Source: Rubripirellula sp. (GTDB lineage: Bacteria; Planctomycetota; Planctomycetia; Pirellulales; Pirellulaceae). Taken from it: DNA of 64,000 nucleotides. This document shows, one piece after another, positions 4,339 to 21,756 of this stretch. The stretch covers positions 3,648,001 to 3,712,000 of the forward strand of contig OZ244207.1 of the NCBI GenBank assembly GCA_965216875.1. Reading direction: 5' to 3'. Position 1 is the stretch's first letter. Every line of letters begins with the position of its first letter. Both the position numbers and the translations under genes were made by a program. The notes under the pieces were generated by a model. It saw only the letters and a program-made list of their open reading frames with translations, searched no databases and was not told the origin of the DNA.

Positions 4339-7224
4339 TCATGATCCAGACCCATTTTCTAGCAACTCGGTGATCGCCTTTTTCATTTCAGCGACCATTT
4401 TTGGGCCTCCGCCGACGTAAAGCCGAGCAATTTTCCCGTCAGGACCGACGATCACCATTTGAGGAATCGCTCGCGCCTCGTACCGATGAGCCGCCACGCC
4501 GTCGAGGTCCAGAGCGACCGGAACTTCCATCTCGTGACGCTCCATCACCGCTTTGACGTGGTCGGCCGGTTCTTCGAGATTGACCGAAACGAGTCGCACC
4601 ATCGCAGGATCGAACTCCGCAATCGCCTCTTCCACCAGAGGCATTGTCTGCATGCAGGGAGCACACCAGGTGGCCCAGAAATCCAAGACCACGATCTTGC
4701 CCTTCTGCTCACTCAATACGAATCGGTCACCGTCGAGCATGTCGAGCTTGATCTCGGGGGCCTCCTGACCAATCAACGTCGATTCCGAACCCACCGGTGG
4801 AGCCTCGCCGCCCGCGGAAGCGGAAGCCATCTTCGGTTCCACCGCAGAATGCAATACCCACTTGTTGTAGGGCAAGGACGAAACGGCTTGACCGATACCT
4901 TCGCCAAACAAAATTTGATCGACATCACGCAAGTCGAAGTTACAAAAGCCGACGACATCGCTGCGACCGGTGATCGCATCACCATCGACCGATTCAGGAT
5001 CAAAGGTTACCCGTTTGCCATCTCGCTTGAGGACCTGGGCCATATGCAAGAAGGGTGATTCCGTTTCGGGCTCTTTGTTTTCTTGAGCAGCCTTCTGCTG
5101 TTTCAACAAATCTTCGGGATGAAACCAAATGATTTGCGAGATACGACTTAGCGGAATGTCATATTCGTCTAGTTGCACTTCAACGCGAATCGAGTCATCA
5201 CGATAATTCAATAGTCGACACCGTAAGAAGTCGCCGTTTCGCGAACACAACAAATGGGTTGGTGGCGACGGTTTTTGCAAACGAGGCAACGTAAGCAGGC
5301 GTTCTTTTTTCGCCTCCTTCAGACTTGGCGGCGAGACGTTCACCACCCACTCGATCGCCTTGACCTTGTGATGCGGTACGACAGTGTTGTCGGCCCAAGA
5401 GGTTGAAAGATGCACGCCCTGTTCATCAATCGCTTGCACGAGGCAGGGAATCACATCACCCGAGCGAACATGCAAACGATGGGCATCGGGTCCGACGGGC
5501 GTCGCAGCGCTCTTGCTGTCGACCTTTTGCAAAAACAGCTTTCCGAAATTGAGTCCACGCTTTTGTTGTTGAACTCGAAGGCGTTGCATTTGAAGCGCGC
5601 GTTCGGCTGCCGCCGCGGACGAGGGGCTCGGCTTCGGAGGTGGGTCACGATAAACGATGCGGCCATCAGCCTCGTGTTTCAGGGTCGAGGCGCCAACGCA
5701 GCCAAAGCCTTGCCAACGAAACGTTGACATCCCTTTGTCGGCATCCTCGATCGCGGTCACTAACCGACCAGAAAGTTTGTGAGGGCCAAGTTCCAAACGC
5801 CCCGCGCGTCCGGTCGCTTCCGCATCCGCTCCGACCGGTTCACGTTGCATCACGATCAAAGTTCGCGCCATCTCGGCTGGCACGGAGATTTCGCCCTCAA
5901 CCTCATCACTTCGCATCACCCAATGTTTTTCGGTGACCCGTTGAACGCGTCCCGAAATACGAGTGCCATCATGCAAGAAAAGGCTCATCGGCAATTCGGA
6001 CGTTTCGTTCGGTTCGTGCGTCACCTTGACGGCGACCACATCGCCGATCGCGATGGGAACCTCTTCGGCTTCGCTGGTGACGATGAGGTTGCCCGCATCG
6101 ACGTCAAGTCTTACCGCATCGCCTGAGGTGATTGCACCATCGACGCGGGCGACGGCAATGTTCCCGCCCGATGTCGCTTTGGGAAGATTCCCCGACCAGC
6201 GAGAAATCCTGAGTCGTTCCAGCCGCACGGTGCCATGACGGTTGATCAGTCGAATGCCTCGGCCCAACTCGCGTTTGCCGACATCCTCTTTGGGCGGTGC
6301 CAGTTCGGCGAGTTTTGTGCCATCGGGTCGATAGATCATGATCTTGCCCGCTGACTGGTCGAGATACACCAGCAAACGAATCCCGGTTTTGTCCGCGAGC
6401 GAATCGACTTTTTCGACGTCAGCGGCTCGTTCATATTCACGCATGACCGCCAGCGTCTGGCCAAACGTTTCCAATCGCCAACCATCGGTGCGTTTGTCTT
6501 CGTCGCTGTCGTGATCGGCTGCGATCGCAACCATGAAATTGGGCTTTCCGACCCAAGAAAGCTCGATTTCGATCATCGCGCGATCGGGGACATCGAGATC
6601 GCCATTGATCGTCGCATCGTCCTTGTCGCTCCAGATCTGAGCACCGTCTTCTTGCCAGCCGACGGGATCCCAATTGGTTGTCGACCAGTCTTGAATACCG
6701 GCCAAACTTGCAAACACGAGCGTTGGGTTCTCTTCAAGGCGATACATCCGGCGAAGTGAGGCGGCTTTGACCTTCACCTTGCCAAACTGCTCCGATTGAA
6801 ACGTCAGCGTGGTATCGTCCCACGCGACCAAGTCACCCGACATCAAATCACCACTGACCAATTCAAAAGCGAACTGGCCTTGCTGTGTCATTCGCTGGCG
6901 GGCGGGTGGGAATTTGATCGACTTGATCGCATCGGTCAAAACTTGCATCGGCTCGACGAATGCATCGCCATGCCAAGTGATTGACTTTTCGGACGTCGAT
7001 ACACCGATTTCGCCTGCAATGGTGTTGCCATTGATCAGCGAAACGACGCCCGTCGTCTTCTCCGGAACGGGCTGAGCTTCGACGTCGCTCGTCTCTTCGC
7101 CCTTGTTCTCGGTCGTCGCCCCAAAATCCTCACCGATTCGGACGGCGCGAATTTGCTGCGCAGCCAAGCTGGCCGTCATCAGCAACAATATCGAAAACGG
7201 CAGCGTGAATCGAACCAGCTTCAT
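4339..7224 (-). CDS. Large exported protein with C-terminal TlpA/redoxin thiol-disulfide oxidoreductase domain
   Basis: Signal peptide MKLVRFTLPFSILLLMTASLAA (start reset to ATG 7224). C-terminal KGKIVVLDFWATWCAPC...IPQMVIVGPDG is a thioredoxin fold with CxxC and the cis-Pro. Confidence 0.85.
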   Translation of the reverse strand: MKLVRFTLPFSILLLMTASLAAQQIRAVRIGEDFGATTENKGEETSDVEAQPVPEKTTGVVSLINGNTIAGEIGVSTSEKSITWHGDAFVEPMQVLTDAIKSIKFPPARQRMTQQGQFAFELVSGDLMSGDLVAWDDTTLTFQSEQFGKVKVKAASLRRMYRLEENPTLVFASLAGIQDWSTTNWDPVGWQEDGAQIWSDKDDATINGDLDVPDRAMIEIELSWVGKPNFMVAIAADHDSDEDKRTDGWRLETFGQTLAVMREYERAADVEKVDSLADKTGIRLLVYLDQSAGKIMIYRPDGTKLAELAPPKEDVGKRELGRGIRLINRHGTVRLERLRISRWSGNLPKATSGGNIAVARVDGAITSGDAVRLDVDAGNLIVTSEAEEVPIAIGDVVAVKVTHEPNETSELPMSLFLHDGTRISGRVQRVTEKHWVMRSDEVEGEISVPAEMARTLIVMQREPVGADAEATGRAGRLELGPHKLSGRLVTAIEDADKGMSTFRWQGFGCVGASTLKHEADGRIVYRDPPPKPSPSSAAAAERALQMQRLRVQQQKRGLNFGKLFLQKVDSKSAATPVGPDAHRLHVRSGDVIPCLVQAIDEQGVHLSTSWADNTVVPHHKVKAIEWVVNVSPPSLKEAKKERLLTLPRLQKPSPPTHLLCSRNGDFLRCRLLNYRDDSIRVEVQLDEYDIPLSRISQIIWFHPEDLLKQQKAAQENKEPETESPFLHMAQVLKRDGKRVTFDPESVDGDAITGRSDVVGFCNFDLRDVDQILFGEGIGQAVSSLPYNKWVLHSAVEPKMASASAGGEAPPVGSESTLIGQEAPEIKLDMLDGDRFVLSEQKGKIVVLDFWATWCAPCMQTMPLVEEAIAEFDPAMVRLVSVNLEEPADHVKAVMERHEMEVPVALDLDGVAAHRYEARAIPQMVIVGPDGKIARLYVGGGPKMVAEMKKAITELLENGSGS

Positions 7225-7229
7225 CGCAA

Positions 7230-8276
7230 TCACCGCTCGTAAATGGGTAGGAAGCGATAGTTTACCGCTAGCGCCAAAAGCGAAAGCGTTGTCGACACAT
7301 AGGTGCCTTGATTCCCCTGCATGCTGCCATCGTCGTTTTGGACGTTCTTGAGCCGTCGCACAAGGAGCTTGTTCCATTTCTCCCAAGCATCAATGTCGCC
7401 TTGAAACAAGGCTTGGGCTTGGTAGTAACTTTGGTATTCGATACCGCCGTGGCCAGCACTGCCGCCGTTGATTTTGTTCTTCAAATACTGAAGCGTCGAA
7501 TCATATTGCTTCAGGTCTTTGCGACGAGAGATCGCGAACACGAGCGTTCCGATCGAGATGCGTGCTAGGGATTCGTCGAATCCGCCGATGCCACCCGAGT
7601 AGGCGACCTGGCCTGAGGGTGCCGTCATTTTCACAAAGTAGGAAATGGCTTTGTCCACCGCTTCATCGGGAACTTCGATGCCAGCATTGCGTGCAGCCAA
7701 CAACCCCATCAACACGGCGCCCGCAACGGACGTGTCAGCGTCATTGCCACTGGGACTGTAGCGCCAGGCCCCCATTGAGTTGTTCTTTTGGCTGGTAACC
7801 GCTGCGCGAACGGCAAGTTCGAGGGATTGGCCGATCGTTAGATTCTCGGCACTCGAACCCGACGGCCAAAGATTGCGATCGTCCACCGTCCCGTAGGCTT
7901 CGGCCAGTCCGAGCATGGCGAAACCGTGGTGGTACATGCTGTTTCCGAAGTAACCGGTGCCCTTGTCTTGGGTGCGGATCATGTTGCGCAAACAGCGGCG
8001 AATGTTACTGGCGTACAAACCAAAGTTGGGATCTTCGCCCGAGGCCAGGAAACACATCAGCGCCATGCCGCCAACACCTGGTCCTTGGTGACTCGATGGC
8101 CAACTGCCATCTTCTTTTTGCGTGCGCACCAAGAACTGCAAGCCGCGGTCGTACATCTCACGCACGTCACGTGGGACCGCATCACCGGTGCGAATCTCGA
8201 CCGCTTGCGCGTGCACGATTGACGGCAGCAACATCGGTAACAGAATCACCAACACCATAAAGATTCGAGAGCTCAT
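7230..8276 (-). CDS. Prenyltransferase/squalene-hopene cyclase repeat (alpha/alpha toroid) protein, exported
   Basis: QW-like repeats (FLVRTQKEDGSW, SQKNNSMGAWRY, VQNDDGSM) and a signal peptide. Start ATG 8276 overlaps the upstream stop (ATGA). Confidence 0.85.
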   Translation of the reverse strand: MSSRIFMVLVILLPMLLPSIVHAQAVEIRTGDAVPRDVREMYDRGLQFLVRTQKEDGSWPSSHQGPGVGGMALMCFLASGEDPNFGLYASNIRRCLRNMIRTQDKGTGYFGNSMYHHGFAMLGLAEAYGTVDDRNLWPSGSSAENLTIGQSLELAVRAAVTSQKNNSMGAWRYSPSGNDADTSVAGAVLMGLLAARNAGIEVPDEAVDKAISYFVKMTAPSGQVAYSGGIGGFDESLARISIGTLVFAISRRKDLKQYDSTLQYLKNKINGGSAGHGGIEYQSYYQAQALFQGDIDAWEKWNKLLVRRLKNVQNDDGSMQGNQGTYVSTTLSLLALAVNYRFLPIYER

Positions 8277-9061
8277 TCTTCCTCCTCGAACTGTGCCTGC
8301 AGGTGCGGCTCCATCGCTTTGCCCTGTTGGATCATCGCAGCGATGACCTTCCATTCGTCATCATTGAAGTAGGGACGCAGTTTTTCCGTCGGCACTTTGC
8401 TCATCTGCAAAAGTACCGCATAGAAATGCATACTCGACTGGCCGTAATACCTTGGCGGCTTGGTCTCATCGACGATCAATTCGATGATCGCGTCGCGTTG
8501 CTTCCGCGTCATCGGGACCTTGCGTTCAATCATCGAGAGCGTCATTCGAATGTTGTCGATGTAGATCGCCTTCTCGCGTTGGCGCTTCATCGCTTCGAAT
8601 TCGTGCTGTTGGTTTTCGTCCAAGATCGAATTAACTGTCTTGGCGAACAACGACTTGGGACCATGCAAACCGGCGTTGTACCGAGTTTGAAGTGGACGTG
8701 TCTTTTGCCAAACCTGCTGCCACTCGTCGCGTGGGATACCGCCAAAGGTCATGCCGCGTTTGACGCGTTCGTAGTCATTGAAGAAGCGGTGGATATCGCC
8801 ACTTCCAGCAAGTTCGAGTTTCTCGCGTTGGGCGTCCGTCAAATGCACCGCCATATCGACGAAATCGATCTGCACCTGCAGCGCTTCATCGGTTCGCTTC
8901 TTTGCAGCCGCGTGCGTGCGTTGATTGCCAAATATGTTTTGAACGAACGATTGCTCCGTAAACTGAATCAAGTCGTTGGCCATCACGACCTGCGCCGACG
9001 CTGGCTTCGCCACAGCGACGAGTGCCAAAAAACTGACTGCGATGATGAATCGAAGCTTCAT
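8273..9061 (-). CDS. Exported hypothetical helical protein
   Basis: 262 aa with signal peptide MKLRFIIAVSFLALVAVAKPASA. ATGA overlaps at both ends imply translational coupling. Confidence 0.8.
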   Translation of the reverse strand: MKLRFIIAVSFLALVAVAKPASAQVVMANDLIQFTEQSFVQNIFGNQRTHAAAKKRTDEALQVQIDFVDMAVHLTDAQREKLELAGSGDIHRFFNDYERVKRGMTFGGIPRDEWQQVWQKTRPLQTRYNAGLHGPKSLFAKTVNSILDENQQHEFEAMKRQREKAIYIDNIRMTLSMIERKVPMTRKQRDAIIELIVDETKPPRYYGQSSMHFYAVLLQMSKVPTEKLRPYFNDDEWKVIAAMIQQGKAMEPHLQAQFEEEE

Positions 9062-10041
9062 TGCTGAGCCTCCAATTCGGTCGTCTCCTCGGTCTCTGAC
9101 GCGGCCGCATCTGGCAGGTCCGCACTGGGTAGGTCCGCGTTGGGAGCTTCGGCGGTCCCATCATCACCAGCCTTTGGCTCGCTCTTTGGCTTCGGTTTTT
9201 CAAACGCCGGCAGTTCGACACCGAACGAAAACGAGTCTTGAACGCCAAGTTCCATCTGCCAACCAAAGTTGACTGACGTGTTGTTGTTGCGTTGTGTCCA
9301 AAGGGACTGCTGTCGATCGGTCAGGTGAGGTTTCAAGATGTAGGTTTCTGGGAGCCGGGCGTATTGGGGATACATGAACAGCCGGACTCCGGTTGACCAG
9401 CCCTTGCTCCATTTTTCGTTCAATTCGACCTTGATATCGTCATGCTGTTTGGGCGTTAGCAACAACGCGTCGTCGATGTGAACCAGCATGGTTCCGAGGG
9501 AAGCGTCTCGTTCGGCGGCGGCTCGCGCGGCCAACTCCTCTCCATAACGCTGAGCCACTTCGGCAGGCATGGTCTCTTTGATCACCGTTTCCAGCGCCGC
9601 GGTTATCTGGGGCTGAGGCTTGGGCCACTGGCTGGCGGCCTGGCGGATCTTTTGCAGGTCTTCGTAATGCTTCGAAAGGTGAGCGACAGCGAGTCGTCCA
9701 GCTCGATGAATCTCGTCAAATTGTTCGTCGTTGGGCTGGCAAACCTTTTTGACAAAATGCAATTCGACGGTAAGCACTTTGGACACAAATGGCGAATACA
9801 TGTTGGCAAAATCGCCATCCACGTTTTTGCGCACAAGCTCGGCCGGCTGAAGCGCCATGACCGGTACCGGCGCAGCCGGTCGAGCAGGCTTTCGCTCGCC
9901 ATTGATGAGATTGCCCAACACTTTCAAGACACCGCCTTCGTCTTGGGCATGAGTGCTCGACAGCATGCCCAGAACGATCGCGCTGACGACAGCAAGTCGT
10001 TTCACGCCGCAAAGGTGTTTCGTCAGTAAGCGATCAAACAT
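9058..10041 (-). CDS. Exported hypothetical helical protein
   Basis: Signal-like segment RLAVVSAIVLGMLSSTHA and acidic tail. ATG 10041 overlaps the upstream TGA (TGATG). Confidence 0.78.
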   Translation of the reverse strand: MFDRLLTKHLCGVKRLAVVSAIVLGMLSSTHAQDEGGVLKVLGNLINGERKPARPAAPVPVMALQPAELVRKNVDGDFANMYSPFVSKVLTVELHFVKKVCQPNDEQFDEIHRAGRLAVAHLSKHYEDLQKIRQAASQWPKPQPQITAALETVIKETMPAEVAQRYGEELAARAAAERDASLGTMLVHIDDALLLTPKQHDDIKVELNEKWSKGWSTGVRLFMYPQYARLPETYILKPHLTDRQQSLWTQRNNNTSVNFGWQMELGVQDSFSFGVELPAFEKPKPKSEPKAGDDGTAEAPNADLPSADLPDAAASETEETTELEAQQ

Positions 10042-13000
10042 CAGTCGTTCTGCCAACCCTCAAGCTGGTTGAAGTACTTGTCCAATCCAGTGCGGAACTC
10101 TTCGGGCAATGTCGCTCCGGCCGTTCCGGTCGACTGGCTGGATGCCGTCAAGTCTTCACGAACTTCCTTTTCATTCACTCCACTTCCGACCAACGCAAGT
10201 GCAGGTGTCTCGGTGTCGCCGCCACCGCCACCACCAGGACTTGCGCCACCACCGCCGCCACCGTTCGGGTTAAACCGCTTCGACTGCAGCAACAATTCGA
10301 TGATTTCAGTCTCCGCAGCAATCGCCGGTGCACCTGTCTCGGGACGTCGCAAAATGTCGACCGTCTCAAGCATGACATCTTCGACTTTCGACAGGAGCTT
10401 GATTTCCTTCGCGAATTGAGCTTGCGCGTCGGGCAACTCCTTGATTCGCTCGACGACTTTCTCCATTCGCACGCGGAACTCTTCTTGAGTTCCCGATAAC
10501 TTCTCGCCTGTCATCGTGTGTTCGGTATCGGTGACGGCAGGACGAGCCTGTTCGGCGACGCGTGTCTGCTCACGCAATTTCACTTCGCCTTCTAAGAGTT
10601 GCAAAACTTCCAATACGATCGATGGTGGCAAACTGCCAGCCGATTTGCAGCCCGGTCACAAACCGCCCTTGGTCACTTCAACCAGGTCTTCGGCCCAGCG
10701 ATCAAAGTTCTCACTCCAGTATTCCGCCTGTGAGATCGAAAGTCCGTTTTCTTTCTTCAAGTCATCACTCAGATGCCGAAGTCCCGCGGTCACGTCCTGA
10801 TCACGCATGTCATCCAACACCACTTTGAACCGCATGAAACGGCTGCGTTCGAAATAAGCAGCCATGTCGTCCATGATGTGCGAGGCTTCCTGGCTCGAAA
10901 CCGATTCGGTTTCAGACAGTTTCGCAAAGGTGTCTGCATTGCCTTCTTTCTGGCGGTTTGAGACCCCGAAAGTATCCGCGACCATCGAGCCGAGTTTCAT
11001 CGCAACTTGTTGCTGCTTTCGCGACGACGCCTTCAACCGCTTGACCAGAGTGCTGCCTTCAAGATTGGCAAGCACGTTGTTGAGTTCATCAACGATCTTT
11101 TCGAACTCGGCAAGCAGATCCTCTTGTTGCTCGACCGCTTCATCCACTTGTTCGTTCGCGGGTGGCGGTGGCTGATCACTCTTTTGGCCGCCGCCGGCAA
11201 GCATTGTTGTTGGCAACGTCAATCGTGGTTTCCCACCACTATCTTCTTGCGGTTCGCTTGGTTCCTTCGACTCAGGCTGATGATGCGACGATTCAACATC
11301 GCTGATTGTCGGAACCTTTGTGGGATCTTTTGGCTCGCCTGGCTTTTTGGGGTCAGCCGCGCCCGATTGAGTCAATCGGTTTTGCCCAGCCTTGGGAGCC
11401 TGGTTCTGTTGGCTCGGTGGACTTGACGGTTTCGCTGGAGCCTTTGATGCCTGCTTGAGCAGGTCGGCAACCGAAGGCATCCGGTTACCGCTAATGTCTT
11501 TAAGAACCTGCATCATCTCGGCCCACTTGTCCAAGTGCCCAACGCCGATCTCTGGATTCCGCATCGCCTCTTTGAGCAACATCTCGCCGAACGAGGTCAG
11601 GTTGGTGAGCCGACGCCCGTTGGCTCGTTCACCCTGGGCCTGCGAAGCGAGCAGGCGTCGGTTCTCGGGCCGATCGAGTTGCTCGGGCGACATGTCACGC
11701 AGTTGCTTGTTCGTTTCGTAAAGCTGCATCTCGCGATCGCGAACGTCCAATGACATGCGATGCCAGCGACTCAGCTCGGCCGTCACCCAAATCGCATGCT
11801 GTTCGGCGTTCAGTACGTTAAAGACGCAGGTCGGCGAATAGATGCGAGGTCGATCGGGAAAGTAGTCTTCGACAAACACGCGTACGGCCAACGGCTGTGG
11901 CGCGATCTCATTCTCTTTGGCCGAAAAGGTCGCGGCCAACTCGAGAAACTCGGCTTCGTAATCGCCGGCGCCGATCACCTTTTCGCCTTTGGCAAAACCT
12001 TGGACGGTTTCATCAAGTCCAACCCACTGAATCCCGACTCGTTTGACGCCAAAATCGTCGCGAGCTCGCACCTTGAACGTCAACACTTCGGTGTCGAGCA
12101 GAACCTTGCGGCGTGGCAGGTTTTCGCAAATCAACGTCGGCATTTCGTCATCGACGCCTTCGATGGTCAGTTCGAAGGGGCGTTTGCCGCTGAGCCCAAA
12201 CTGGTCCTCCCACTGCATCTCGATCTTTTCCGTTCCGTCAATCTTGACTGGTGGTGTCGAGAACTCGGAATCGGTTGTTGATTGAGGCTTGCCATTGACG
12301 AGCGCTGCCGATAGCTCTCGTGATGCGGTGGCCGTCAACGTGGTCTCGCTTCCTTTGACGACCGTCAAGGTCGCACCACGAATACTCTTTTCCAGCAACT
12401 TTTTGCGGCCGAGGTAATCGGGCAACTTCACTGCAGCCGACAAACCACTCAATTCGGGTCGCAACATCGGTTCGATTTTGGTTTCACCGGCAAAGTCACC
12501 GACGCGAACATTCAAATTGCTGTCGGCGATTTGCCCTGGAAGTTCAAAGTGATACTCGCTGTCGTCAGCAAGATCGGCCTCTTCGGCGGTGTGTCCTGCG
12601 AGGTTGACCGACGCCTTGGATGGTTTCCATTGCGTCGACTCTTGCAACTTGATCGCAACGTCGAACGATTCACCATGGGGCACGACGATCCGCTCGGGAA
12701 GTGGTTCGATCGCCGCGAACGTATAGCGAGGCGTCTCGCCCCAAGGCTTCAGGAAGCGTGCCCACGCGTTCTTTGCCGCAGCGGCGGTGAACAACAAGAG
12801 GGCAACGGCAACAAACCCGAGGAAGCCAACCGCGTACCCGCGTTGGATGTGTTGTGGATTGGGGATCGCGCCTCGCAGGTCTTGCTGCTCGACATTCTCG
12901 GCCACTTGCTTGATGGCCGCTTCGACCAGCTCGGGCGAGCGTGATTGCTCGGACGAATCTTCCGAGAGCTCGATCACACCAAGCAGTTGATCGCCAGCAC

Positions 13001-13349
13001 TTGGATGGGTTTGCGAAAGTAGACGCGCCAATTGGTCCATTCGCCTGCGTCGCCAGACCCAGCGTTCCAAACCGACCGGCACAAGCGCACACGCTGCGAT
13101 CGCGCCAAAGAAGATCACCGTACGAATGATCGCTGGCGTGTCAAAGAGACGATCAAGCGTATAGGTCAGCAGAAAGCCGACCAGAATGCCAATGACCGCG
13201 GCGGCGAACGCCTCGAACATCTTCAACCGCCAAACCCGCCCACGGAAATCGAGCAGTTTCGCTTTGAGCGATTCGGGGATCTGAAGTTGGTTATTCGACG
13301 TGACCTGCATGGGACCTTTTCTCCCAAGTGAAATAACTTGTGTTGTCAT
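10041..13349 (-). CDS. Large membrane-anchored coiled-coil protein of the MoxR/BatA operon (DUF4175-like architecture), ~1102 aa with one in-frame TGA at 10656-10658; candidate selenoprotein (UxxC)
   Basis: ORFs 10656-13349 and 10041-10631 share a frame: ...GAA GTG ACC AAG GGC GGT TTG TGA CCG GGC TGC AAA TCG GCT GGC AGT TTG CCA CCA = EVTKGGL*PGCKSAGSLPP. Three N-terminal hydrophobic helices and a SECIS-like hairpin downstream of the TGA. Confidence 0.78.
10624..10641 (-). promoter_or_regulatory. Candidate bacterial SECIS element (selenocysteine insertion hairpin)
   Basis: mRNA GG-C-UGGCA-GUU-UGCCA-CC begins 14 nt after the UGA. It has a bulged pyrimidine and a loop starting GU, resembling E. 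coli fdhF GGUUGCAGGUCUGCACC. Confidence 0.68.
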
Positions 13350-13478: not shown

Positions 13479-15689
13479 CTAGATCAGTCCTACCGCTTTT
13501 CTCCAAACCCAAAAGATTCCCAAAAGCAGGACAATCAGGGCGAACGCCAGCGGGTGACTCCAAAGTTGCAAGCGTCGCACCGATGGCGGTGGCATCGGCA
13601 AATCAGCCAGCGCCGCGATCACTTGGTCGATCTCCTCGGGTCGAACCGACTGGCCCCGTGAAACCATCGACAACTCCTGCAGCACTTCGGGCCGAGCCGG
13701 CTTGCCGACTTGTTCAATCTGTTGGCCTTGCACGAAAAAGTTCGCCTGCAGCGTCGCGCCCGTTTGTCGGCAAGCTAACGTTACGTCATGTTTGCCTGGT
13801 TCCGTTGGCACGTAACGACCTTCGAAAACACCCCAGCGATCGCCTTCGGCAGTCAAACGAATCGTGTCCGAATTGCCCGAAGGCGCGATGATTCGGGCCG
13901 TCACATCACCCTTGGCCAGCGGTTCGCCGCCGTTGTCCATCACATGAGCATGGAAGGTAAGCGTGCGTCGCATTTCGGGTTGATCGGGCGTGTAGTAAAG
14001 ACGCATCGTTTCGCCCTTGGCCATGTTGCGTTGGTACGCCATCCAGCGCACCACCTGACCCCAAAAGCGATAGTGGTACTTGTCTTCGACACCTTTACGC
14101 CACCGCCATGCACCGTCGGTTCCCATGAACAGAACCTTGCCCGCGCCGTAAGTGCGCGTCGCCAGCAACGGCAAGCGACCGTACTTGTTTGACATCTCGC
14201 CATGAACCGCAAGGACTTCGCAACCGGCTTTGGCGCGAATCACTGGAGCGTACCACTGGAATCCAGGCAGGTCTTCCCAAACTTGAACGTTCTCCTGGCT
14301 GGTATCGGCAAGCTTGGTCAACAAACTGCTTCGCCCGCGTTCAGTCAATTCAAAGTGGCCGGGTGTTCGCGATCCCCAACCGCCAAGTTGGGCCTCGTCC
14401 AAGATCACGGGGCACAACTCCTTCAAACTCGTCTCCAACAAGCTGAATTGTCGCCCCTGCCAACCAGGCATGAAGACAAGACCGCTGGCCTGATGTTCGA
14501 CCAAGCCTTTGACCAGATCGCATTGCTCTTCGGTCAATTGGCCATCTTCAAGTCCAACGTCTCCGAGAAAGACAACGTCGTATTGCGAAAGATCTTCAAT
14601 CGCTTCAGGAAAGGCTTTGATGTAATCCTTTGATCCGCCACCCACCTTGTCCAATCCGGGATGAAACAGCAAGCAAGAGACATCGACACCGGGATCGCGC
14701 GACAACGCGTTTCGCAAATAGCGGTATTCCCACCGCGGGTACGACTCGACCAGTAGGACTTTCAGTTTCTCTTCGCGAATCGCAATTGGCGCCGATTGTT
14801 CGTTGTTGCCGGGGATCGTTTCGTCGGCATGTTTGGGGATCGTCAAAGTGACCGAGTAGTCGCCCGTGACTTGTGGCTTCCAATTGATTGCGTCGGTCGT
14901 GCGACCCATCGGGGCAATGCGTACATCTTTGGTAAGCGTTTCGCCATCGGAGGTTTTCAGAGACACCGTCGTTAGGAACTCTCGTGGCAGTGAGCTGTCG
15001 ACGGTAAATGGAATCCGCACCACCTTGCCCGCCGTTCCAAAGGTTGGCAGGTCAACACTGACCAATTCCAAATCGGGCAATCGTGTGGCGCTGCCCGAGG
15101 CCACGGTGAAAACGGGAACGCCTTTGGTGCGCAGTCGCGATGCCGCTTCCACGGGCGGTTTGCCTTGGTTCCAATCGCCATCGGAAATCAATACGATCCC
15201 CAGCAGTTGGTTGACGCGTGCCGCCACTTCCAACAAGGGTTCGTTCAAATCCGTGCCAATCGAATTCGCTTCACCCACCGACTCGGGCGAAGCAATCGGT
15301 TCGACAACCACGTTAAGTTTTTCATCGAGTGCGTTCCACGCGTCGGCTTTGGTCAGCGAATCGATCGCCTCGGCTCGGGTGATCGCGCCGACTTCGGCGT
15401 CGCCAGTGACAACATCACGTGTCTGCATGCTTGCCGATTGGTCCCACAAGACGGCAATGGTTGGCTTTGCGTCGGGACGGTATTCTTCGACCCACTCGGG
15501 TTGGTTCAACAGGATCGCCACCATGGCAACGATCACAACGCGAAGCGTTTCCAAGCCGGCCACCGACCGCGAATAGCCGCTTCGCTGCCACGCGAAAACA
15601 CCAAGCGCCGCGGTTGCCAACACAACCACAACCGCTGCGACGACCGAAAAGGTTGTCCCCATGAAGGTGAGCTGCTGAACGGAGTTCAT
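13479..15689 (-). CDS. Membrane protein with vWA domain and class I glutamine amidotransferase-like domain
   Basis: N-terminal TM helices, MIDAS-like VLWDQSASM and VLISDGDWNQG, KVLLVESYPRWEYRYLRNALSRD, GAGKVLFMGTDGAWRWR, and a C-terminal TM helix. Confidence 0.85.
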   Translation of the reverse strand: MNSVQQLTFMGTTFSVVAAVVVVLATAALGVFAWQRSGYSRSVAGLETLRVVIVAMVAILLNQPEWVEEYRPDAKPTIAVLWDQSASMQTRDVVTGDAEVGAITRAEAIDSLTKADAWNALDEKLNVVVEPIASPESVGEANSIGTDLNEPLLEVAARVNQLLGIVLISDGDWNQGKPPVEAASRLRTKGVPVFTVASGSATRLPDLELVSVDLPTFGTAGKVVRIPFTVDSSLPREFLTTVSLKTSDGETLTKDVRIAPMGRTTDAINWKPQVTGDYSVTLTIPKHADETIPGNNEQSAPIAIREEKLKVLLVESYPRWEYRYLRNALSRDPGVDVSCLLFHPGLDKVGGGSKDYIKAFPEAIEDLSQYDVVFLGDVGLEDGQLTEEQCDLVKGLVEHQASGLVFMPGWQGRQFSLLETSLKELCPVILDEAQLGGWGSRTPGHFELTERGRSSLLTKLADTSQENVQVWEDLPGFQWYAPVIRAKAGCEVLAVHGEMSNKYGRLPLLATRTYGAGKVLFMGTDGAWRWRKGVEDKYHYRFWGQVVRWMAYQRNMAKGETMRLYYTPDQPEMRRTLTFHAHVMDNGGEPLAKGDVTARIIAPSGNSDTIRLTAEGDRWGVFEGRYVPTEPGKHDVTLACRQTGATLQANFFVQGQQIEQVGKPARPEVLQELSMVSRGQSVRPEEIDQVIAALADLPMPPPSVRRLQLWSHPLAFALIVLLLGIFWVWRKAVGLI

Positions 15690-17701
15690 GATGCTGCTCC
15701 TTCATTGGCGAACATTGGCCCCGATCCCTTCGTCACCTTGCGTGGGATGCACAACGCTGCCTCGAGCACGAGTGCAACGAGCATGATGACTAAGAAGAGC
15801 CGCCAGATCTCCTGGATCAACGACGTGCCACTTCCTGCGCTGTCGTCGACACGGTCAAAGTCGAGCTGTTCGAATAGCCCCGCCACACGATCTTGAGAAA
15901 CGACCGCTGCGACGTCTTCGTCAGCGCTGCGATTGATGGCGAGCAATCGATCCTCTTCGCGGTAGATCCCAGCGTGCGACGCGAACTCACTTGACAACGC
16001 ATCGACCTCGCCAGCGAGTTGCCGCCATTGGGCCGTGTCGGTGGTCGCCAGGGCGCCAGCCGAAACTTGTCGTGTGTTGCCCAGTGACTTGGCACCTTCG
16101 GAAAGGGCTCGTTGAATCATCGCGTAAAGCACCACCCCATCTCGAGCGAGCGACGAATCCGACTGCAGCGCCGTCGTGCTGCAGAAGTAGATGTTGCGAG
16201 CATCGGTGACCGCCTGGGCAAGCAGTGCCGCACCACCGTCAAGTGTGGCGAGAGTCAGCCGTTCTCCCTCGAGCTCGCAGTAGCGATGAACCTTCCACTG
16301 TCCCACGGGAAGGGACGCACCACTTCGCACTTTTGCCAACAAGCCTTGATCACCCGACCAAGTCGAAACCTGAAACGTTTGTTCCTTGTCTTGCCAGTCT
16401 GCCCAGGAAACACCAGCAAACGAATCGGTCGAAGGCGTTGTGGGAGGAAAAAAGATGACCTGACCGCCCCGATCCAAGAATGCATTGAGCTGTCCGCCAA
16501 GGCTGTCGGCGGCGTCGCCACTGGGCAAGTCTGATTGCCAAAGCACGAGCGAAACCTCGTTCCAGTTCACGCCGATCAATTGATCGGGTGAAACCGAAAT
16601 CGCTTCGCAGCGAATCTCCTGTGACGGCGAAATCGAAGCTGCAAACTCGAGCGGCCGGGTTGCGTCGGGATCATCACTGACAATCACGGTCTTTCGCACG
16701 ACCGCTTCGTCGTAAACAAAAAAGAACTCATTGTCCGCGGGACTGGTGTCGGTTGGAATCGAAACGCGTCCCCAACCTCGCGTCTTGCCGCCGTCGAGTT
16801 CAAAGGGAATGTTCTTCAGATCAACTTCCGTCCCGGTGATCTCAGCCGAGAACTCGCTCCGCGCGCCGTCGAGTTCCAACGTGATCGGAATCGTCTGAGT
16901 CGATTCCGCCGGCGTCATCTGTTCGATGCGCAGCGAAAGCAACAGTTCGGGACCGTCCTCGCCGACCACGCGACGCGCATCGGTCACACGTATCGAACGG
17001 TTGGTGGGATCCACATCGGTGTAGGCCAACAAATGGAAACGCACCATTTGCGGCAGTTCCTGCAGTGACTTGCGAACCGCCGTCCAGCGTCCGCTCTCAT
17101 CTTTCCAGTCGTTCCGGCGGACGTCGCTGCAGATCCAGATTTCACAGCGACTCGGGCGATTGGCCCGAATGTACTCGTCGGCAACCTCCAACATCGTTGG
17201 CACATCTGCCGACGCACTCACCGCCCCAGTCTCGGGCAGGTCCTGCAGTACCTCGGGCGATTCAATTTCGACGGCTCGCTCATTCACACTATCGATGAGG
17301 ACGTAGCGATTCGATTCGAGCAAGCTTAGCGAGCGGACCAGTTGGTCGACGCCCGACTGTAATTTGGTTCGGCCACCGGGACCACTCTGCGTCATACTTG
17401 CCGATCGATCGAGCAGGATGATCGTCGTGTCGACCTTGCTGCCAGCCGCGACGCCGATCCAACCACTGGCAAGTGGTCGTGCAATCGCAAACAGCAATCC
17501 TGCGATGGCAAGCGTTCGCGCGGCAAGGATCAACCATTGTCGCAACCGAGCGTAACCGCGCGACATTCGATTGGCCTGCAACAAAAAGGCCATTGCCGCC
17601 CACTGCACGGTTTGAAACCGGCGTTGGTTGATCAAGTGAATGATGATCGGTAGCGCGATTACTGGAATCGCAAACAGCATTGCAGGCTGAATGAAACTCA
17701 T
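15686..17701 (-). CDS. BatA (aerotolerance regulator) N-terminal domain and vWA domain protein
   Basis: MSFIQPAMLFAIPVIALPIIIHLINQRR...WAAMAFL...LFAIARP is the BatA double-TM signature. Also LLDRSASM and a C-terminal IWRLFLVIMLVALVLE helix. Confidence 0.88.
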   Translation of the reverse strand: MSFIQPAMLFAIPVIALPIIIHLINQRRFQTVQWAAMAFLLQANRMSRGYARLRQWLILAARTLAIAGLLFAIARPLASGWIGVAAGSKVDTTIILLDRSASMTQSGPGGRTKLQSGVDQLVRSLSLLESNRYVLIDSVNERAVEIESPEVLQDLPETGAVSASADVPTMLEVADEYIRANRPSRCEIWICSDVRRNDWKDESGRWTAVRKSLQELPQMVRFHLLAYTDVDPTNRSIRVTDARRVVGEDGPELLLSLRIEQMTPAESTQTIPITLELDGARSEFSAEITGTEVDLKNIPFELDGGKTRGWGRVSIPTDTSPADNEFFFVYDEAVVRKTVIVSDDPDATRPLEFAASISPSQEIRCEAISVSPDQLIGVNWNEVSLVLWQSDLPSGDAADSLGGQLNAFLDRGGQVIFFPPTTPSTDSFAGVSWADWQDKEQTFQVSTWSGDQGLLAKVRSGASLPVGQWKVHRYCELEGERLTLATLDGGAALLAQAVTDARNIYFCSTTALQSDSSLARDGVVLYAMIQRALSEGAKSLGNTRQVSAGALATTDTAQWRQLAGEVDALSSEFASHAGIYREEDRLLAINRSADEDVAAVVSQDRVAGLFEQLDFDRVDDSAGSGTSLIQEIWRLFLVIMLVALVLEAALCIPRKVTKGSGPMFANEGAAS

Positions 17702-18609
17702 CGAATCCCCCGCGACTTGGTTCGGCCGGCCAGGAACCGCAGCAACACCTGCTCGTACGCTTCATCCACGCTGATTCGGTGATAGTCGATCGCCGACTCA
17801 AGCACGATCGATTTGATTTGATCCAAATAGGTGTGCAGCGCCTTTTGATACCGATCAACAATTTCGGTAGGTTCAGCAAAGATCGACGTGCCCCCTTCCA
17901 TGTCAACAAACCGCGTCGGCCGTCGAAACTCGAAGCCCAGTTCTTGAGGGTCGAGCAAATGAAAGACCGCCACGTCATGTTTGCGAAAACGAAGGTGGTC
18001 AAACGCTTCACGCAGCTGTTCGGGATCGACGAACAAATCAGACATAATCACGACAAGTGCGCGCTGCCGCGTCGTTTCGGCAAACTCGTGCAATCGGTTG
18101 ACCAATTGCGTGTCGCCCGCCGCGTCGGAATGCTCGAGCACATCGAAGATGCCTCGCAAGTGCGACGGCGTTCGTCGGGGTGGAATCGTGCGAACGATTT
18201 CCTCGGCAATGCAGGTCAAACCGACCGCATCGCCTTGCTGGACGGCCAAGTAGGCGAGCGAACCGGCCAACCGCCGAGCGTATTCAATTTTGGTCACGTC
18301 GCCGGAACCAAAGTTCATGGAACCGCTCGTGTCGAGCACCATGCAGCAGCGCAGGTTCGTGTCCGCTTCGAACTCTTTGACGTAGAAACGATCGGTGCGA
18401 CCATAGGCGCGCCAATCGAGACGCCGCAAATCATCACCAGGGACATAGCGTCGGTATTCTGCAAACTCGACGCTGGCACCGCGATGTGGGCTCGCGTGCA
18501 TCCCCGAGACACTTCCGACCATCGCCCGTCGCGCGAACAACGGCACCGCCGCAAGTCGTGCCAACGCCTGCGGGTCAAGGAAGCTGCGATTGTTATCGTC
18601 GGGGAGCAT
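17698..18609 (-). CDS. DUF58 domain-containing protein (MoxR-associated)
   Basis: GASVEFAEYRRYVPGDDLRRLDWRAYGRTDRFYVKEFE, VLDTSGSM and VVIMSDLF. Confidence 0.92.
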   Translation of the reverse strand: MLPDDNNRSFLDPQALARLAAVPLFARRAMVGSVSGMHASPHRGASVEFAEYRRYVPGDDLRRLDWRAYGRTDRFYVKEFEADTNLRCCMVLDTSGSMNFGSGDVTKIEYARRLAGSLAYLAVQQGDAVGLTCIAEEIVRTIPPRRTPSHLRGIFDVLEHSDAAGDTQLVNRLHEFAETTRQRALVVIMSDLFVDPEQLREAFDHLRFRKHDVAVFHLLDPQELGFEFRRPTRFVDMEGGTSIFAEPTEIVDRYQKALHTYLDQIKSIVLESAIDYHRISVDEAYEQVLLRFLAGRTKSRGIR

Positions 18610-18657: not shown

Positions 18658-20628
18658 TTAGTTGGGTGTCGCGTAGATCAACCATTTTCCGTCGGGGCTG
18701 AAACAAACGGAGGTCACCGCTCGCTCTTCACCCACTTCTTTCATCCGAATCGGCGTGCCGTCGCCCTCGGGCGAAAACTCGTAAAGCAACGCCTTTTTCT
18801 TTTCAGGTGTGTTGAGGTTGAACACAATCCGCTTGCCATCGGGGGACCAAGCCAAATCGGCGCCAATTTGTCGGTCGGTTGCGTGGTAGGTCTTCAAATC
18901 GGGGGCGCCAGTCATATTAACGATTGCCAACTGCTGTTTGTTAGGCAAACGCCCCTTAAACACCATCCGCTTGCTGTCAGGCGACCAAGCCATGTTCCAG
19001 AAGATGTACTGGTACGGGTGCTCGCCCTTGGCCAACACGACCCGCGTCTCTTCCGAATCGACATCGTAGACGCGCAGGGAATTGTCATTGGTGTAGGCAA
19101 TCGACTTTCCATCAGGTGACCATTGGGCAGCCCAACCGTCAGCGATTCGCTTTTCAGGTGTCCCGTCGGCCTTCATGATCCAAATGCCACTGCCACCCTC
19201 GTAGCGTGAACAGGCAAAACGTTCCCCATCAATCGACCAACTCGGCATCAAGCCATCTGTCAGGTTGTGCACATTCTTGCCGTCAGGCGTCATCTTCAAG
19301 ATGCGCGCCTTGCTGATGCCTTGGCTCGGCGTGACGTCAAACGCGATCCACTTGCCGTCGTTTGAAACGGCCGGAGAACCGCAGGTCGGGAACTCGCGCC
19401 GCCGATAAACTTCGCGAGACACGCCGTCTTCGAGCGAAATCATAACGAGCGAATGAATCGCTTTGCTCTTGAATTCGAATTCGTCGGCCGACAGCTTGTT
19501 GTCACGATCCAGGTCGTGACGGTGAAAATAGAAACGACGATGCAATTGAAAGAGACTGCGTTTGTTTGAAAAGACAAACTCTTCAAATGAAAGAAACGAG
19601 TCATCGTTGTCGTCTTTCGGGATCGATCCCCACGAATAGTTATGGTTGCCGAGCATCGATAGACGAAACTCGCTGAGCGAGAGTTTGCCGTCGCCATTTT
19701 CGTCAAATCCCGATAGTGATGACGAAATCAAACTCTGGCGAAACCCTGGCGTCGAATCACGCAACTCATGCTTGTCCAACAACGCATCAAAGTTCGTGTC
19801 GGCTTTGCGAAAATCTTCGATCGGATCAACGATGTTGGGTCCATCGACTCGAGTGAACTCACGGAGTGTGATCCGCCCATCGTTATCACGATCCGCCGCC
19901 TCAAAGTCAGCTTCGGCCGTTTGAGGACGCCACCAAGTTTCGATGAATTCCTGTTTCGAAATCACGTCGTCGGAGTTGGCGTCGCTGCGCAGAAACCGCG
20001 CAAAGTTCACCACGCGTCCATTTTCCAAACGCAGTTTGTTACCGGTCGTCCAACGGATCCCAAGTTGGATCTCAAGAAAACGCTTCGCCTCTTCGCGGGT
20101 CACCGAATGATCACCGTTCGGATCAGCCTGAGCAACGATTTCGCGTTCGAGCCGACGACGGTTGTCCGTCGACAATGAGGCTGCAAAGTTGATCGCAAAG
20201 AACGTGCTGTTCATTTGCTCGGTGGTTCGATTGTTCCAACCATCGTAGGCTTCATCCAAAGCCTCGATCGCTTGCTCGAGCAAACCGTCATAAGGGTCAG
20301 GCATCGGACCGCGCTGACGTGGCTTGCCGCTGCTCGGAGTCATGTCGAATTCGCTTTGCGAAAGCTTTTTGTCGCCGTTGAAATCGAAAAGCTTGAAGTC
20401 ACGACGCAAAACGCGAGCATCACCGCCCCGTTTAAGGTACTCCTCCTCGCTCAGTTGCCGATCTGCGTCCTGGTCGAGGACGGTGAACGCCGCGCGGCGT
20501 AACTGAGCAAGGCGTTCGGCGGAATCTTGGCCCAGGAGCGTCTGACAGGGCAAGGCAAGAACCATCAACAGCGCAGCGGTGATCGCCGCGACTGCATGAT
20601 TGTTCATCAAGCCCGACAAAGTCCGCAT
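18658..20628 (-). CDS. Exported EF-hand repeat protein with C-terminal TolB-like (PD40/WD40) beta-propeller
   Basis: Signal peptide, about ten DxDxDGxxSxxE-type loops (DFNGDKKLSQSEF, DRDNDGRITLREF, DENGDGKLSLSEF), then WSPDGK repeats. Confidence 0.85.
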   Translation of the reverse strand: MRTLSGLMNNHAVAAITAALLMVLALPCQTLLGQDSAERLAQLRRAAFTVLDQDADRQLSEEEYLKRGGDARVLRRDFKLFDFNGDKKLSQSEFDMTPSSGKPRQRGPMPDPYDGLLEQAIEALDEAYDGWNNRTTEQMNSTFFAINFAASLSTDNRRRLEREIVAQADPNGDHSVTREEAKRFLEIQLGIRWTTGNKLRLENGRVVNFARFLRSDANSDDVISKQEFIETWWRPQTAEADFEAADRDNDGRITLREFTRVDGPNIVDPIEDFRKADTNFDALLDKHELRDSTPGFRQSLISSSLSGFDENGDGKLSLSEFRLSMLGNHNYSWGSIPKDDNDDSFLSFEEFVFSNKRSLFQLHRRFYFHRHDLDRDNKLSADEFEFKSKAIHSLVMISLEDGVSREVYRRREFPTCGSPAVSNDGKWIAFDVTPSQGISKARILKMTPDGKNVHNLTDGLMPSWSIDGERFACSRYEGGSGIWIMKADGTPEKRIADGWAAQWSPDGKSIAYTNDNSLRVYDVDSEETRVVLAKGEHPYQYIFWNMAWSPDSKRMVFKGRLPNKQQLAIVNMTGAPDLKTYHATDRQIGADLAWSPDGKRIVFNLNTPEKKKALLYEFSPEGDGTPIRMKEVGEERAVTSVCFSPDGKWLIYATPN

Positions 20629-20631
20629 CCA

Positions 20632-21756
20632 TTAACCCCGCGCTGCCGAAGCCGATGCGCCACTATCGATCCCACCTTCGACCGTTTCCTTGACCAGACG
20701 ACGCACGATTTGGCGCGCGTCAACGCCTTCACTTTGTGCTGCAAAGGTCGTGATCATGCGGTGCGTCAACACGGGCTCGGCAACCGCTTCGATGTCTTCG
20801 AGTCGCACCATGTATTGCCCGGCAAGCGCCGCACGTGTCTTGCCACCTAGAATCAAATACTGAACCGCACGCGGACCAGCCCCCCAAGAAACAAGCGGCT
20901 TGAGCCAATCAGGGGCGACGTCTTCGCGGGGACGAGTCTTGCGAACAAGCTTGACCGCAAATTGGTAAATGTGATCCGGCACAGGAACGCGACGCGCCAA
21001 GTGTTGGAACGCCAAGATGTCTTCGGCATGCAACAGCGCGTCGAGTTTGGGCAATTGATCACCCGTCGTTGTTCGCGCGATCTGAATCTCTTCGGCTTCC
21101 GATGGATAGTCGAGCTCGATCAGGAACATGAATCGGTCAAGCTGCGCCTCAGGCAACGGATACGTTCCTTCCTGCTCGACCGGGTTTTGGGTGGCAAGAA
21201 CCAAGAAAGGTTCGTCCAAATCGTACGGCTTGCCGAGCACCGTGACGCGATGCTCTTGCATCGCTTCCAACATGGCAGCTTGGGTCTTTGGTGGAGCTCG
21301 GTTGATCTCGTCGGCCAAAACGATGTTGGCAAACACTGGTCCAGGCACGAACTGAAACTCACGACGTCCCTCGGCCGTGTCTTGCAGGATGTCGGTGCCG
21401 GTGATGTCCATCGGCATCAGGTCGGGTGTGAACTGAACACGCGAAAAATCGAGCGACATCGTTTCGGCGACCTTGCTGACCAAAAGCGTTTTGGCCAAAC
21501 CAGGCACCCCCATCAACAAGGCGTGACCGCGAGCAAACAGACAGATCAATAATTGCTCGATCACCTCCGATTGACCGACAATCACCTTGCCCAATTCTTG
21601 CTTCAGCTTTGCGTGGCACTCCTGCAACCGTTCGATGTGCTGGACATCATCCGAACTGAGCTCTTCAGACGTGCCAGCACTTGCCTGCGAAGGGGAATCA
21701 TTCATCGAACGGGGATGCTCCGAAGTCAACGGGGAAAAACCAGGTGATGGGTCCAC
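20632..21756 (-). CDS. moxR: MoxR family AAA+ ATPase
   Basis: Walker A GVPGLAKT, RVQFTPDLMPMDITG, Walker B VLADEINRAPPKTQAAMLEAM, and ATQNPVEQEGTYPLPEAQLDRF. The true start may be slightly downstream (MNDSPS). Confidence 0.95.
   Translation of the reverse strand: MDPSPGFSPLTSEHPRSMNDSPSQASAGTSEELSSDDVQHIERLQECHAKLKQELGKVIVGQSEVIEQLLICLFARGHALLMGVPGLAKTLLVSKVAETMSLDFSRVQFTPDLMPMDITGTDILQDTAEGRREFQFVPGPVFANIVLADEINRAPPKTQAAMLEAMQEHRVTVLGKPYDLDEPFLVLATQNPVEQEGTYPLPEAQLDRFMFLIELDYPSEAEEIQIARTTTGDQLPKLDALLHAEDILAFQHLARRVPVPDHIYQFAVKLVRKTRPREDVAPDWLKPLVSWGAGPRAVQYLILGGKTRAALAGQYMVRLEDIEAVAEPVLTHRMITTFAAQSEGVDARQIVRRLVKETVEGGIDSGASASAARG

Follow-up and report, generated by a model that had tools for sequence, protein, structure and literature searches.

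In the fdhF type of selenocysteine insertion sequence (SECIS) of Escherichia coli, a stem-loop lies within the coding sequence soon after the UGA codon and carries G and U in its apical loop about 20 nt downstream. Here we describe a gene that resembles this arrangement. It lies on the minus strand of a window of 64,000 nt from a planctomycete, Rubripirellula sp. (assembly GCA_965216875.1, contig OZ244207.1, positions 3,648,001 to 3,712,000; coordinates below are those of the window unless another sequence is named). An in-frame TGA at 10656-10658 interrupts the gene, and this TGA is very probably a selenocysteine (Sec) codon within one membrane-anchored protein of 1102 residues. As in the fdhF type, a stem-loop inside the coding sequence presents G and U in an apical loop about 20 nt past the UGA. 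Unlike it, the planctomycete element is short (5-7 bp with a 3-nt loop, GUU) and is SECIS-like by sequence comparison. Where the UGA stands in a neighbouring column, another hairpin takes its place, which is longer, rich in G and 8-10 nt past the codon.

Bacterial selenoproteins are commonly recognised by a UGA aligned with Cys in homologues, by TGA-containing orthologues in organisms that use Sec, by a hairpin downstream of the UGA, and by the presence of sel genes (PMC12013277, PMC13188914). The 1102-residue protein shows the same features as the 119 families and subfamilies collected in a 2026 review (PMC13188914). Nearly all of the listed families carry a domain identifier, whereas the protein described here has no Pfam or NCBIfam match. 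It also differs from them in being about 1100 aa long and membrane-anchored, in its mostly non-enzymatic look (Ig-like domains and helical bundles rather than a thioredoxin-fold oxidoreductase), and in that two neighbouring Cys columns appear to serve as the Sec site, depending on the lineage.

The gene neighbourhood recalls the Bat or MoxR-VWA "aerotolerance" operons of Bacteroides and spirochaetes (PMC3557215, PMC5700661). Genes for a MoxR AAA_3 ATPase, a DUF58 protein, a BatA N-terminal-domain protein and a VWA-like protein lie together upstream of the TGA-containing gene on the same strand, which is the gene content of a Bat-like operon. The planctomycete locus adds to these the protein of about 1100 aa and a thioredoxin-fold protein, and no such selenoprotein or Cys-cluster protein was seen in the accessible portions of the operon reports. 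A "hypothetical" planctomycete candidate, P1, was included earlier in a supplementary table (S9 Table of PMC4807772) as two ORFs with a predicted SECIS and with Cys in the closest Rhodopirellula homologue. It may be the same gene; the table gives no sequence, length or context by which the identity could be checked.

Reading frame and homologues

Two minus-strand open reading frames (ORFs), one of 897 aa starting at ATG (10656..13349) and one of 196 aa starting at TTG (10041..10631), share a common frame and are separated solely by the TGA at 10658-10656. This was noted in the preliminary description of the window, and the ORF list and translation bear it out. Reading through the TGA gives 1102 residues, ...EVTKGGL-U-PGCKSAGSLPPSIVLE..., in which U is residue 898 and a Cys is residue 901. 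The gene ends at another TGA (10043-10041), so that TGA is an ordinary stop here and is not generally reassigned, as had been stated earlier.

Homologues were searched with residues 760-1103 as the query, and 1544 proteins among 8000 scored candidates matched at E <= 0.001. Almost all of the best 120 of these 1544 are unbroken across the junction and about 1080-1100 aa long, typically about 1085-1090 aa. When the query was aligned with 22 homologues, the column under the TGA held Cys in 18 and Ser in 4 of them, in motifs such as KCGA-C-PGC, DPAC.G.-C-PG and GGA-S-PGG; the same pairing is seen in genome loci, with Cys in most and Ser in a few. Continuous homologues with Cys at this column, to which the preliminary description had looked for support, are thus at hand, and an in-frame UGA facing Cys in this manner is the Sec/Cys pairing typical of selenoproteins.

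A TGA facing Cys could also arise from a nonsense change of a TGC or TGT codon, either in a pseudogene or as an assembly error, since a single base separates TGC from TGA and the aligned residue is indeed Cys. We compared positions 10300-11000 with contigs of four public runs. Two contigs are identical and may be source data. A third, from a different study (X5), has eight differences, seven of which could be placed; none of the seven touches the TGA, and the eighth is unplaced. All seven placed differences fall on third codon positions of the read-through frame, four of them downstream of the TGA. The independent X5 contig, which also answers the earlier call for verification of this base in reads, argues that the TGA is not an assembly slip. 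In addition, the frame stays open for 198-205 codons past the TGA in all eight TGA-form relatives compared, which also speaks against a nonsense change.

Conservation of the internal TGA

Orthologue searches of genomes were carried out such that stop codons were read through and counted. Among 61 relatives searched, 19 strong orthologue matches were obtained, the query included, and 10 of these hold exactly one in-frame TGA. An order-level sample of 401 genomes yielded 106 matches at E <= 1e-20, of which 15 are TGA forms after reading of the contexts, and a phylum-level sample of 401 genomes yielded 15 matches, of which 3 besides the query hold one TGA. One genome (G148) has its TGA elsewhere and was counted as a Cys form; another (G204) has the TGA at the column, followed by a frameshift.

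The TGA occupies the query's column in 21 genomes that belong to five family codes (f1, f5, f6, f11 and f12), in the context [GD]G.-U-[PR]G[CSG]K. Recurrence of this TGA at one alignment column in 20 genomes besides the query is far beyond chance. In four further genomes a neighbouring Cys column is the TGA site instead (loci L023 in G010, L095 in G485, L096 in G450 and L097 in G819), with the motif GPG-U-P/Q, and the nearest Cys relatives of these forms read GPGCP there. The conservation of the TGA in orthologues, for which the preliminary description had proposed to look, is thereby confirmed. All interruptions found at the two columns are TGA, and no homologue is split there by another stop codon.

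A pattern scan with TGA plus the core of the downstream hairpin, using one genome per GTDB species, gave 97 matches, of which 80 are listed. The 1102-residue gene accounts for 75 of the 80 listed matches, and the other five are unrelated chance matches. Nearly all matches are labelled planctomycete; one lies in the complete genome of Stieleria marina K23_9, whose locus L168 reads GGT-U-PGG at the site. The pattern requires the hairpin, so that the scan misses forms without it and is biased; counts out of 74 below refer to the 74 other TGA forms among its listed matches. As the TGA recurs in 75 of the 80 loci listed by the scan, and at the query's column in 21 genomes across five family codes, the nonsense explanation is already contradicted, and we give it next to no weight.

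Some irregularities of the assemblies were noted along the way. TGA forms L014 (G001) and L082 (G204) are frameshifted soon after the Sec region, with a second stop in L014 and a shift right after PGG in L082; these frameshifts are likely draft-genome assembly errors. Four further loci (L113, L135, L143 and L161) present a planctomycete-type TGA gene on contigs of metagenome-assembled genomes labelled Deltaproteobacteria, Alcaligenaceae, Candidatus Kuenenia and Verrucomicrobiia, and may be mis-binned contigs or mislabelled bins. The assembly of G024 is 14 Mb in size with two SelA copies, and this genome may be a mixture of two.

The sequence beyond the TGA evolves as a coding sequence. When the query genome (G000) was compared with G002, the 203 codons after the TGA showed 84 synonymous and 28 non-synonymous codon differences (25, 11 and 104 nucleotide differences at the three codon positions), and the 200 codons before it showed 90 synonymous and 23 non-synonymous differences (27, 9 and 98). 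Purifying selection acts on the frame past the TGA as strongly as on the part upstream.

These data bear on the possibility that the UGA mainly terminates translation. The main product would then be the 897-aa protein, and the downstream 196-204 codons would be translated from the TTG or occasionally, as in a split gene or in a minor, facultative insertion of Sec. In bacteria, Sec insertion has to compete with release factor 2 and is not always efficient, and there is a TTG eight codons past the UGA that might serve as a start. This TTG (10631-10629), however, is the Leu codon of an invariant GSLPP peptide and lies inside the hairpin G10641-C10624, a placement the preliminary description had already remarked on. 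That the downstream part is selected as strongly as the upstream part, and that every interruption at the two Cys columns is TGA rather than a mixture of stops, also speak against termination as the main outcome, which we consider unlikely.

A hairpin downstream of the UGA

The stem of the hairpin begins 14 nt past the UGA and its loop 22 nt past it. We aligned this region from 20 same-column TGA forms (19 distinct rows), in which 96.5% of the cells in a 5-bp core and one outer pair are paired. None of 500 shuffles reached the covariation score of the hairpin, all slid controls scored far lower, and RNAalifold chooses the same core stem. Most stem pairs are invariant. The informative outer pair (columns 27-39 of alignment A2) is CG in 14 rows, GC in 3, UA in 1 and UG in 1. 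This pair was left free on both sides in the search pattern, and all 74 rows of the pattern-scan forms have a standard pair there (60 CG, 8 UA, 3 GC, 2 UG and 1 AU). Both of its partners are third codon positions.

Codon usage under the stem gives a further comparison between TGA forms and Cys forms (loci L061 and L055, as second loci of included genomes, the frameshifted L082, and L023, which uses the other Sec column, were excluded). The Gly codon is GGC in 19 of 20 TGA forms and mixed in Cys forms. The Ser codon is AGT in all 20 TGA forms, and AGC in 23, AGT in 8 and others in 8 of the Cys forms. The Leu codon is TTG in 19 of 20 TGA forms, and CTG in 18, TTG in 14 and others in 7 of the Cys forms. 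The core stem is fully paired in 19 of 20 TGA forms and in 5 of 39 Cys forms, and among these five are some of the nearest relatives of TGA forms, e.g. G321. Synonymous sites under the stem (GGC, AGT, TTG) are thus frozen in the TGA forms only. Comparison of these forms indicates that the stem-loop directly 3' of the UGA is under selection, as would be expected of a SECIS element. The hairpin signal is one of conservation and covariation, not of stability.

TGA forms that use the neighbouring column each carry a separate hairpin 8-10 nt past the UGA, which is G-rich and 7-9 bp long in G485, G450 and G819 and 5 bp long in G010. The sequence of these hairpins varies by lineage, while place and shape are alike. 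An alternative stem of 10 bp at the query locus, pairing GGGCGGCAAA with UUUGCCGCCC, was considered and rejected: it shows no compensatory change, its 85% pairing equals that of shuffles, and it is broken in the query.

Selenocysteine machinery and exchange of Sec with Cys

The query genome (one contig of 8.26 Mb) contains the complete set of genes that the preliminary description had proposed to look for. SelA (412.9 bits) is at 327405-328478 of this contig on the minus strand; adjoining it on the same strand are the SelB wing domain (328768-328902) and SelD (249.3 bits, 325282-326163). A tRNA-Sec was found with 71.5 bits, and ARAGORN assigns it the anticodon tca.

SelA was surveyed in 80 genomes, comprising 22 with TGA forms and 58 others (G148 among the latter). 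At a threshold of 350 bits, which we chose ourselves, SelA is present in 21 of the 22 TGA-form genomes and in 16 of the 58 others; at a looser E <= 1e-30 the counts are 21 of 22 and 26 of 58. We report this co-occurrence as no more than an association, because the genomes are related. That TGA tracks SelA is a further point against predominant termination at the UGA.

Another possibility is that a near-cognate or suppressor tRNA, charged with Trp or Cys, reads the UGA in place of Sec-tRNA. The identity of the inserted residue is not a thing that sequence comparison can distinguish, which leaves some room for this explanation. It would account poorly for the complete Sec system and for SelA in 21 of 22 TGA-form genomes. 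It would also account poorly for a UGA-linked hairpin with constrained synonymous sites, and the very same gene is terminated by TGA. We regard suppression as very unlikely.

Three AhpC/TSA-domain ORFs elsewhere in the query genome, outside the window, have one in-frame TGA each (G000:C1:6090313-6090681, minus strand; 1772056-1772424, plus strand; and 4481535-4481927, minus strand). Their contexts are FTGG-U-TKEC, AHW-U-PHC and CLT-U-PPF, and hairpin loops of CGUGA, GGUCG and GUU, all of which hold GU, begin 20-25 nt after the UGA. These are probably further candidate selenoproteins of this genome.

A quick maximum-likelihood tree was computed from 72 C-terminal segments with the motif masked. 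L014 and L020 were excluded as too short (frameshift or contig end), L055 and L061 as duplicates, L082 as frameshifted, and L029 and L030 for lack of an anchor motif. On this tree, Sec and non-Sec states must have interchanged at least 13 times, which is a rough figure because many deeper branches are weak. Well-supported Sec/Cys sister pairs are G348/G321 (support 100) and G024/G406 (97), and the query's genus is sister to two Ser forms (99). Repeated exchange between Sec and Cys is clear from the tree. In the pair G348/G321, locus L071 (G348) has the TGA together with a true SelA, and its sister L085 (G321) of the same genus has TGC, a still paired GGCAGCUUGCC hairpin and a weak SelA-like match (115 bits). 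This looks like a recent replacement of Sec by Cys that accompanied loss of the Sec system.

Several observations weigh against the assignment of Sec. The compared genomes are related, so that our counts overstate independence. The hairpin is only 5-7 bp long and lies beneath the conserved GSLPP peptide, and folding of the whole 86-nt stretch shows no exceptional stability (z = +1.20, with 175 of 200 shuffles as stable or more so). An Rfam scan of 10300-10900 at E <= 10 returned two noise hits only; to our knowledge, Rfam has no usable general bacterial SECIS model. The canonical stem is broken in one TGA form, L016 (G024), which reads GAC AGU CUG; this genome has another small hairpin, GCUCG-AAGU-CGAGC, nearer to the UGA. 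One TGA-form genome, G231, which is 71% complete, has no SelA match, and the 16 SelA-positive genomes among the others retain Cys or Ser forms. The loop that holds the site is without any Cys in 6 of 49 family members, so that the residue is not essential to the core function of the family. Finally, 15 of 74 TGA forms have no nearby Cys, which argues against a simple or fixed intramolecular selenenyl-sulfide pair.

Set against the Cys homologues, the conserved TGA, the sel genes and the hairpin, these points leave Sec at residue 898, as originally proposed, well supported by comparison. Comparison shows that the locus is a single gene in which UGA is paired with Cys, that a hairpin linked to the UGA is under selection, that the genome has the full Sec system and that TGA forms co-occur with SelA. 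Under the mechanism that we favor, SelB and Sec-tRNA(UCA) would be directed to UGA898 by the short hairpin 14-32 nt downstream within the coding sequence, through its apical loop GUU. The product would be one protein of 1102 residues rather than a pair of 897 aa and 196 aa; selenium insertion itself is what we infer from these features.

Protein architecture and gene neighbourhood

Scans of the 1102-residue protein with Pfam and NCBIfam gave no match. The preliminary description had called it a DUF4175-like protein of a MoxR/BatA operon. The operon part of this statement agrees with the Pfam scan of neighbouring genes (Table 1). The DUF4175 part does not hold: none of 23 family members matches Pfam DUF4175 (PF13779) at E <= 1, the query does not match either, and DUF4175 is named by only one source for one homologue (P0070).

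Three N-terminal membrane helices had been noted before, together with a possibly extracytoplasmic motif, and hydropathy and charge agree with both. Arg/Lys-rich stretches precede the first helix and separate the second from the third. Read by the positive-inside rule, this charge pattern would place residues 194-1102, the Sec loop included, outside the cytoplasm, presumably in the periplasm.

An AlphaFold2 model built from 77 sequences has a mean predicted local distance difference test score (pLDDT) of 80.4. It shows membrane helices at residues 26-68, 73-99 and 167-200 and a helical insert on the cytoplasmic side. After these come beta-sandwich domains (220-513), long helices (515-636) and a linker rich in Pro and Gln that is predicted to be disordered (639-726). 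The C-terminal region (731-1021) is all-helical, and in it helices 871-894 and 909-934 are linked by the Sec loop (895-901), whose pLDDT is below 50. A separate model of residues 731-1102 agrees with the full-length model. Foldseek searches with the full model gave tandem Ig-like matches only, and a wide VIA-align search with the C-terminal domain gave generic four-helix bundles only, at Z about 13, which is background for helical models; neither result points to a function.

The four genes downstream of the Sec/Cys gene follow it in all five relatives examined. Three of these relatives are TGA forms and two are Cys forms, and one of the Cys forms belongs to another order. The 374-aa ORF among them (7230-8354, minus strand) overlaps the preceding gene (8273-9061, minus strand) by 82 nt. 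Its real start is probably further downstream, because relatives align only from about residue 27-50.

Table 1. Features of the TGA-containing gene and its neighbourhood in the window
Feature	Position	Strand	Basis or remark
MoxR AAA_3 ATPase	20632-21756	-	Pfam, 208 bits
EF-hand/beta-propeller protein	18658-20628	-	Pfam
DUF58 protein	17698-18609	-	Pfam, 157 bits
BatA N-terminal-domain protein	15686-17701	-	Pfam, 64 bits
VWA-like protein	13479-15689	-	Pfam E = 0.0064, below cut-off
Complete coding sequence, with internal UGA (probable Sec898) and TGA terminator	10041..13349	-	Orthologues match over the full query (residues 1-1102) and contain exactly one TGA
Predicted N-terminal membrane anchor, three hydrophobic helices (residues ~45-66, 72-95, 171-193)	12771..13217	-	Hydropathy scan
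Predicted C-terminal all-helical region (residues 731-1102): two four-helix bundles with flexible Gly-rich Sec loop between, then poly-Gly stretch and terminal helix	10044..11159	-	Models
UGA probably read as selenocysteine, residue 898, motif GGL-U-PGC	10656..10658	-	Column aligned with Cys in most homologues
Cys901 codon TGC, +3 Cys of UPGC	10647..10649	-	Present in query's genus only
SECIS-like hairpin, 5' arm GG(C)UGGCA, loop GUU (10633-10631), 3' arm UGCCACC	10624..10641	-	Conservation and covariation; overlies codons S-A-G-S-L-P-P
Four downstream genes (332 aa, 262 aa, 374 aa, 1015 aa)	4339..10056	-	ORF list, Pfam
1015-aa protein, signal-peptide-like N-terminus; C-terminal thioredoxin/TlpA-like domain with WCAPC (residues ~872-1005, nt 4372-4773)	4339-7386	-	

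Cysteine partners and possible roles of the Sec loop

The preliminary description placed the UGA in a UxxC redox motif. Such a motif is not a feature of the family: in the 74 other TGA forms, the residue at +3 is Gly in 41, Ser in 27 and Ala in 6, and Cys in none. Cys at +3 is restricted to the query's genus, and a conserved partner Cys three residues from Sec, which defines the UxxC/CxxU class, is absent. Of 18 TGA forms in a first sample, 16 carry the Cys of an AQCE motif 23 residues before Sec, and the remaining 2 carry the +3 Cys. The AQCE Cys was considered as a fixed selenenyl-sulfide partner and was rejected on the 15 TGA forms without a nearby Cys and on the model, in which it lies about 20 helical residues from the loop. 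The Cys homologues have one to four loop cysteines in 43 of 49 cases, and 73 of 74 TGA forms in the wider scan lack other loop cysteines.

We propose that Sec898 sits in a flexible, Gly-rich periplasmic loop between two helical bundles and would present a selenol where relatives carry a thiol cluster (C-x3-C-x2-C). A redox-reactive site, acting in thiol/selenol exchange or in peroxide sensing, is the role that we favor, with about an even chance of being correct, because Sec/Cys exchange is typical of redox sites and a thioredoxin-fold protein is encoded nearby. Such a redox loop would serve the module of MoxR, DUF58, BatA and VWA proteins, and the thioredoxin-fold protein encoded four genes downstream might recycle it. 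The main alternative to redox activity is metal binding by the loop, for which the C-x3-C-x2-C arrangement could provide ligands; we consider this possible, though it is the less likely of the two. A broader proposal, which we put forward as rather doubtful, is that the loop, with its Sec or Cys cluster, acts in the periplasm as the sensor or reactive part of a MoxR-DUF58-BatA-VWA machine. It would then be a redox switch that depends on selenium, or a metal trap, placed at a flexible hinge and reset by the thioredoxin-fold protein of the operon.

Novelty and implications

No fitting entry was found in Table 1 of PMC13188914, with the limit that cd and PTHR models used there are outside the Pfam and NCBIfam scans made here. 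In the accessible portions of BSepDB (PMC13326102; its family table was outside our scope), deep-Sep (PMC12013277), PMC5029168 and PMC4807772, the family is not named. Literature searches found no link between a selenoprotein and MoxR, BatA, aerotolerance or DUF4175, and no account of this family as a selenoprotein; the four papers that mention DUF4175 are, by title and abstract, on other subjects. The earlier impression that this family is absent from described bacterial selenoproteins is thus in accord with the 119 families of the review and with the lack of a Pfam or NCBIfam model, and the 1102-residue protein is a well-supported candidate for a selenoprotein family unlisted in current inventories.

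If so, the bacterial selenoproteome gains a family from a phylum that is absent from the inventory of PMC13188914, and its member is a large envelope protein and not a small oxidoreductase. Wherever a Sec-using planctomycete carries the gene, gene callers would be reporting it as two hypothetical ORFs. At least 75 species genomes of the pattern scan are concerned, so that the whole family is mis-annotated.

The frequent exchange of Sec, Cys and Ser, together with the use of two Sec columns, may serve as a natural experiment on what selenium contributes at this site. The protein also marks one short loop as the probable reactive spot of a conserved and functionally obscure MoxR/BatA/VWA operon, and offers a concrete residue to mutate. 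Should the loop indeed have a sensing role, it would provide a first chemical handle on the stimulus of Bat/MoxR-VWA "aerotolerance" systems, and its Sec would act outside an enzyme active site, in a protein with a structural or signalling role.

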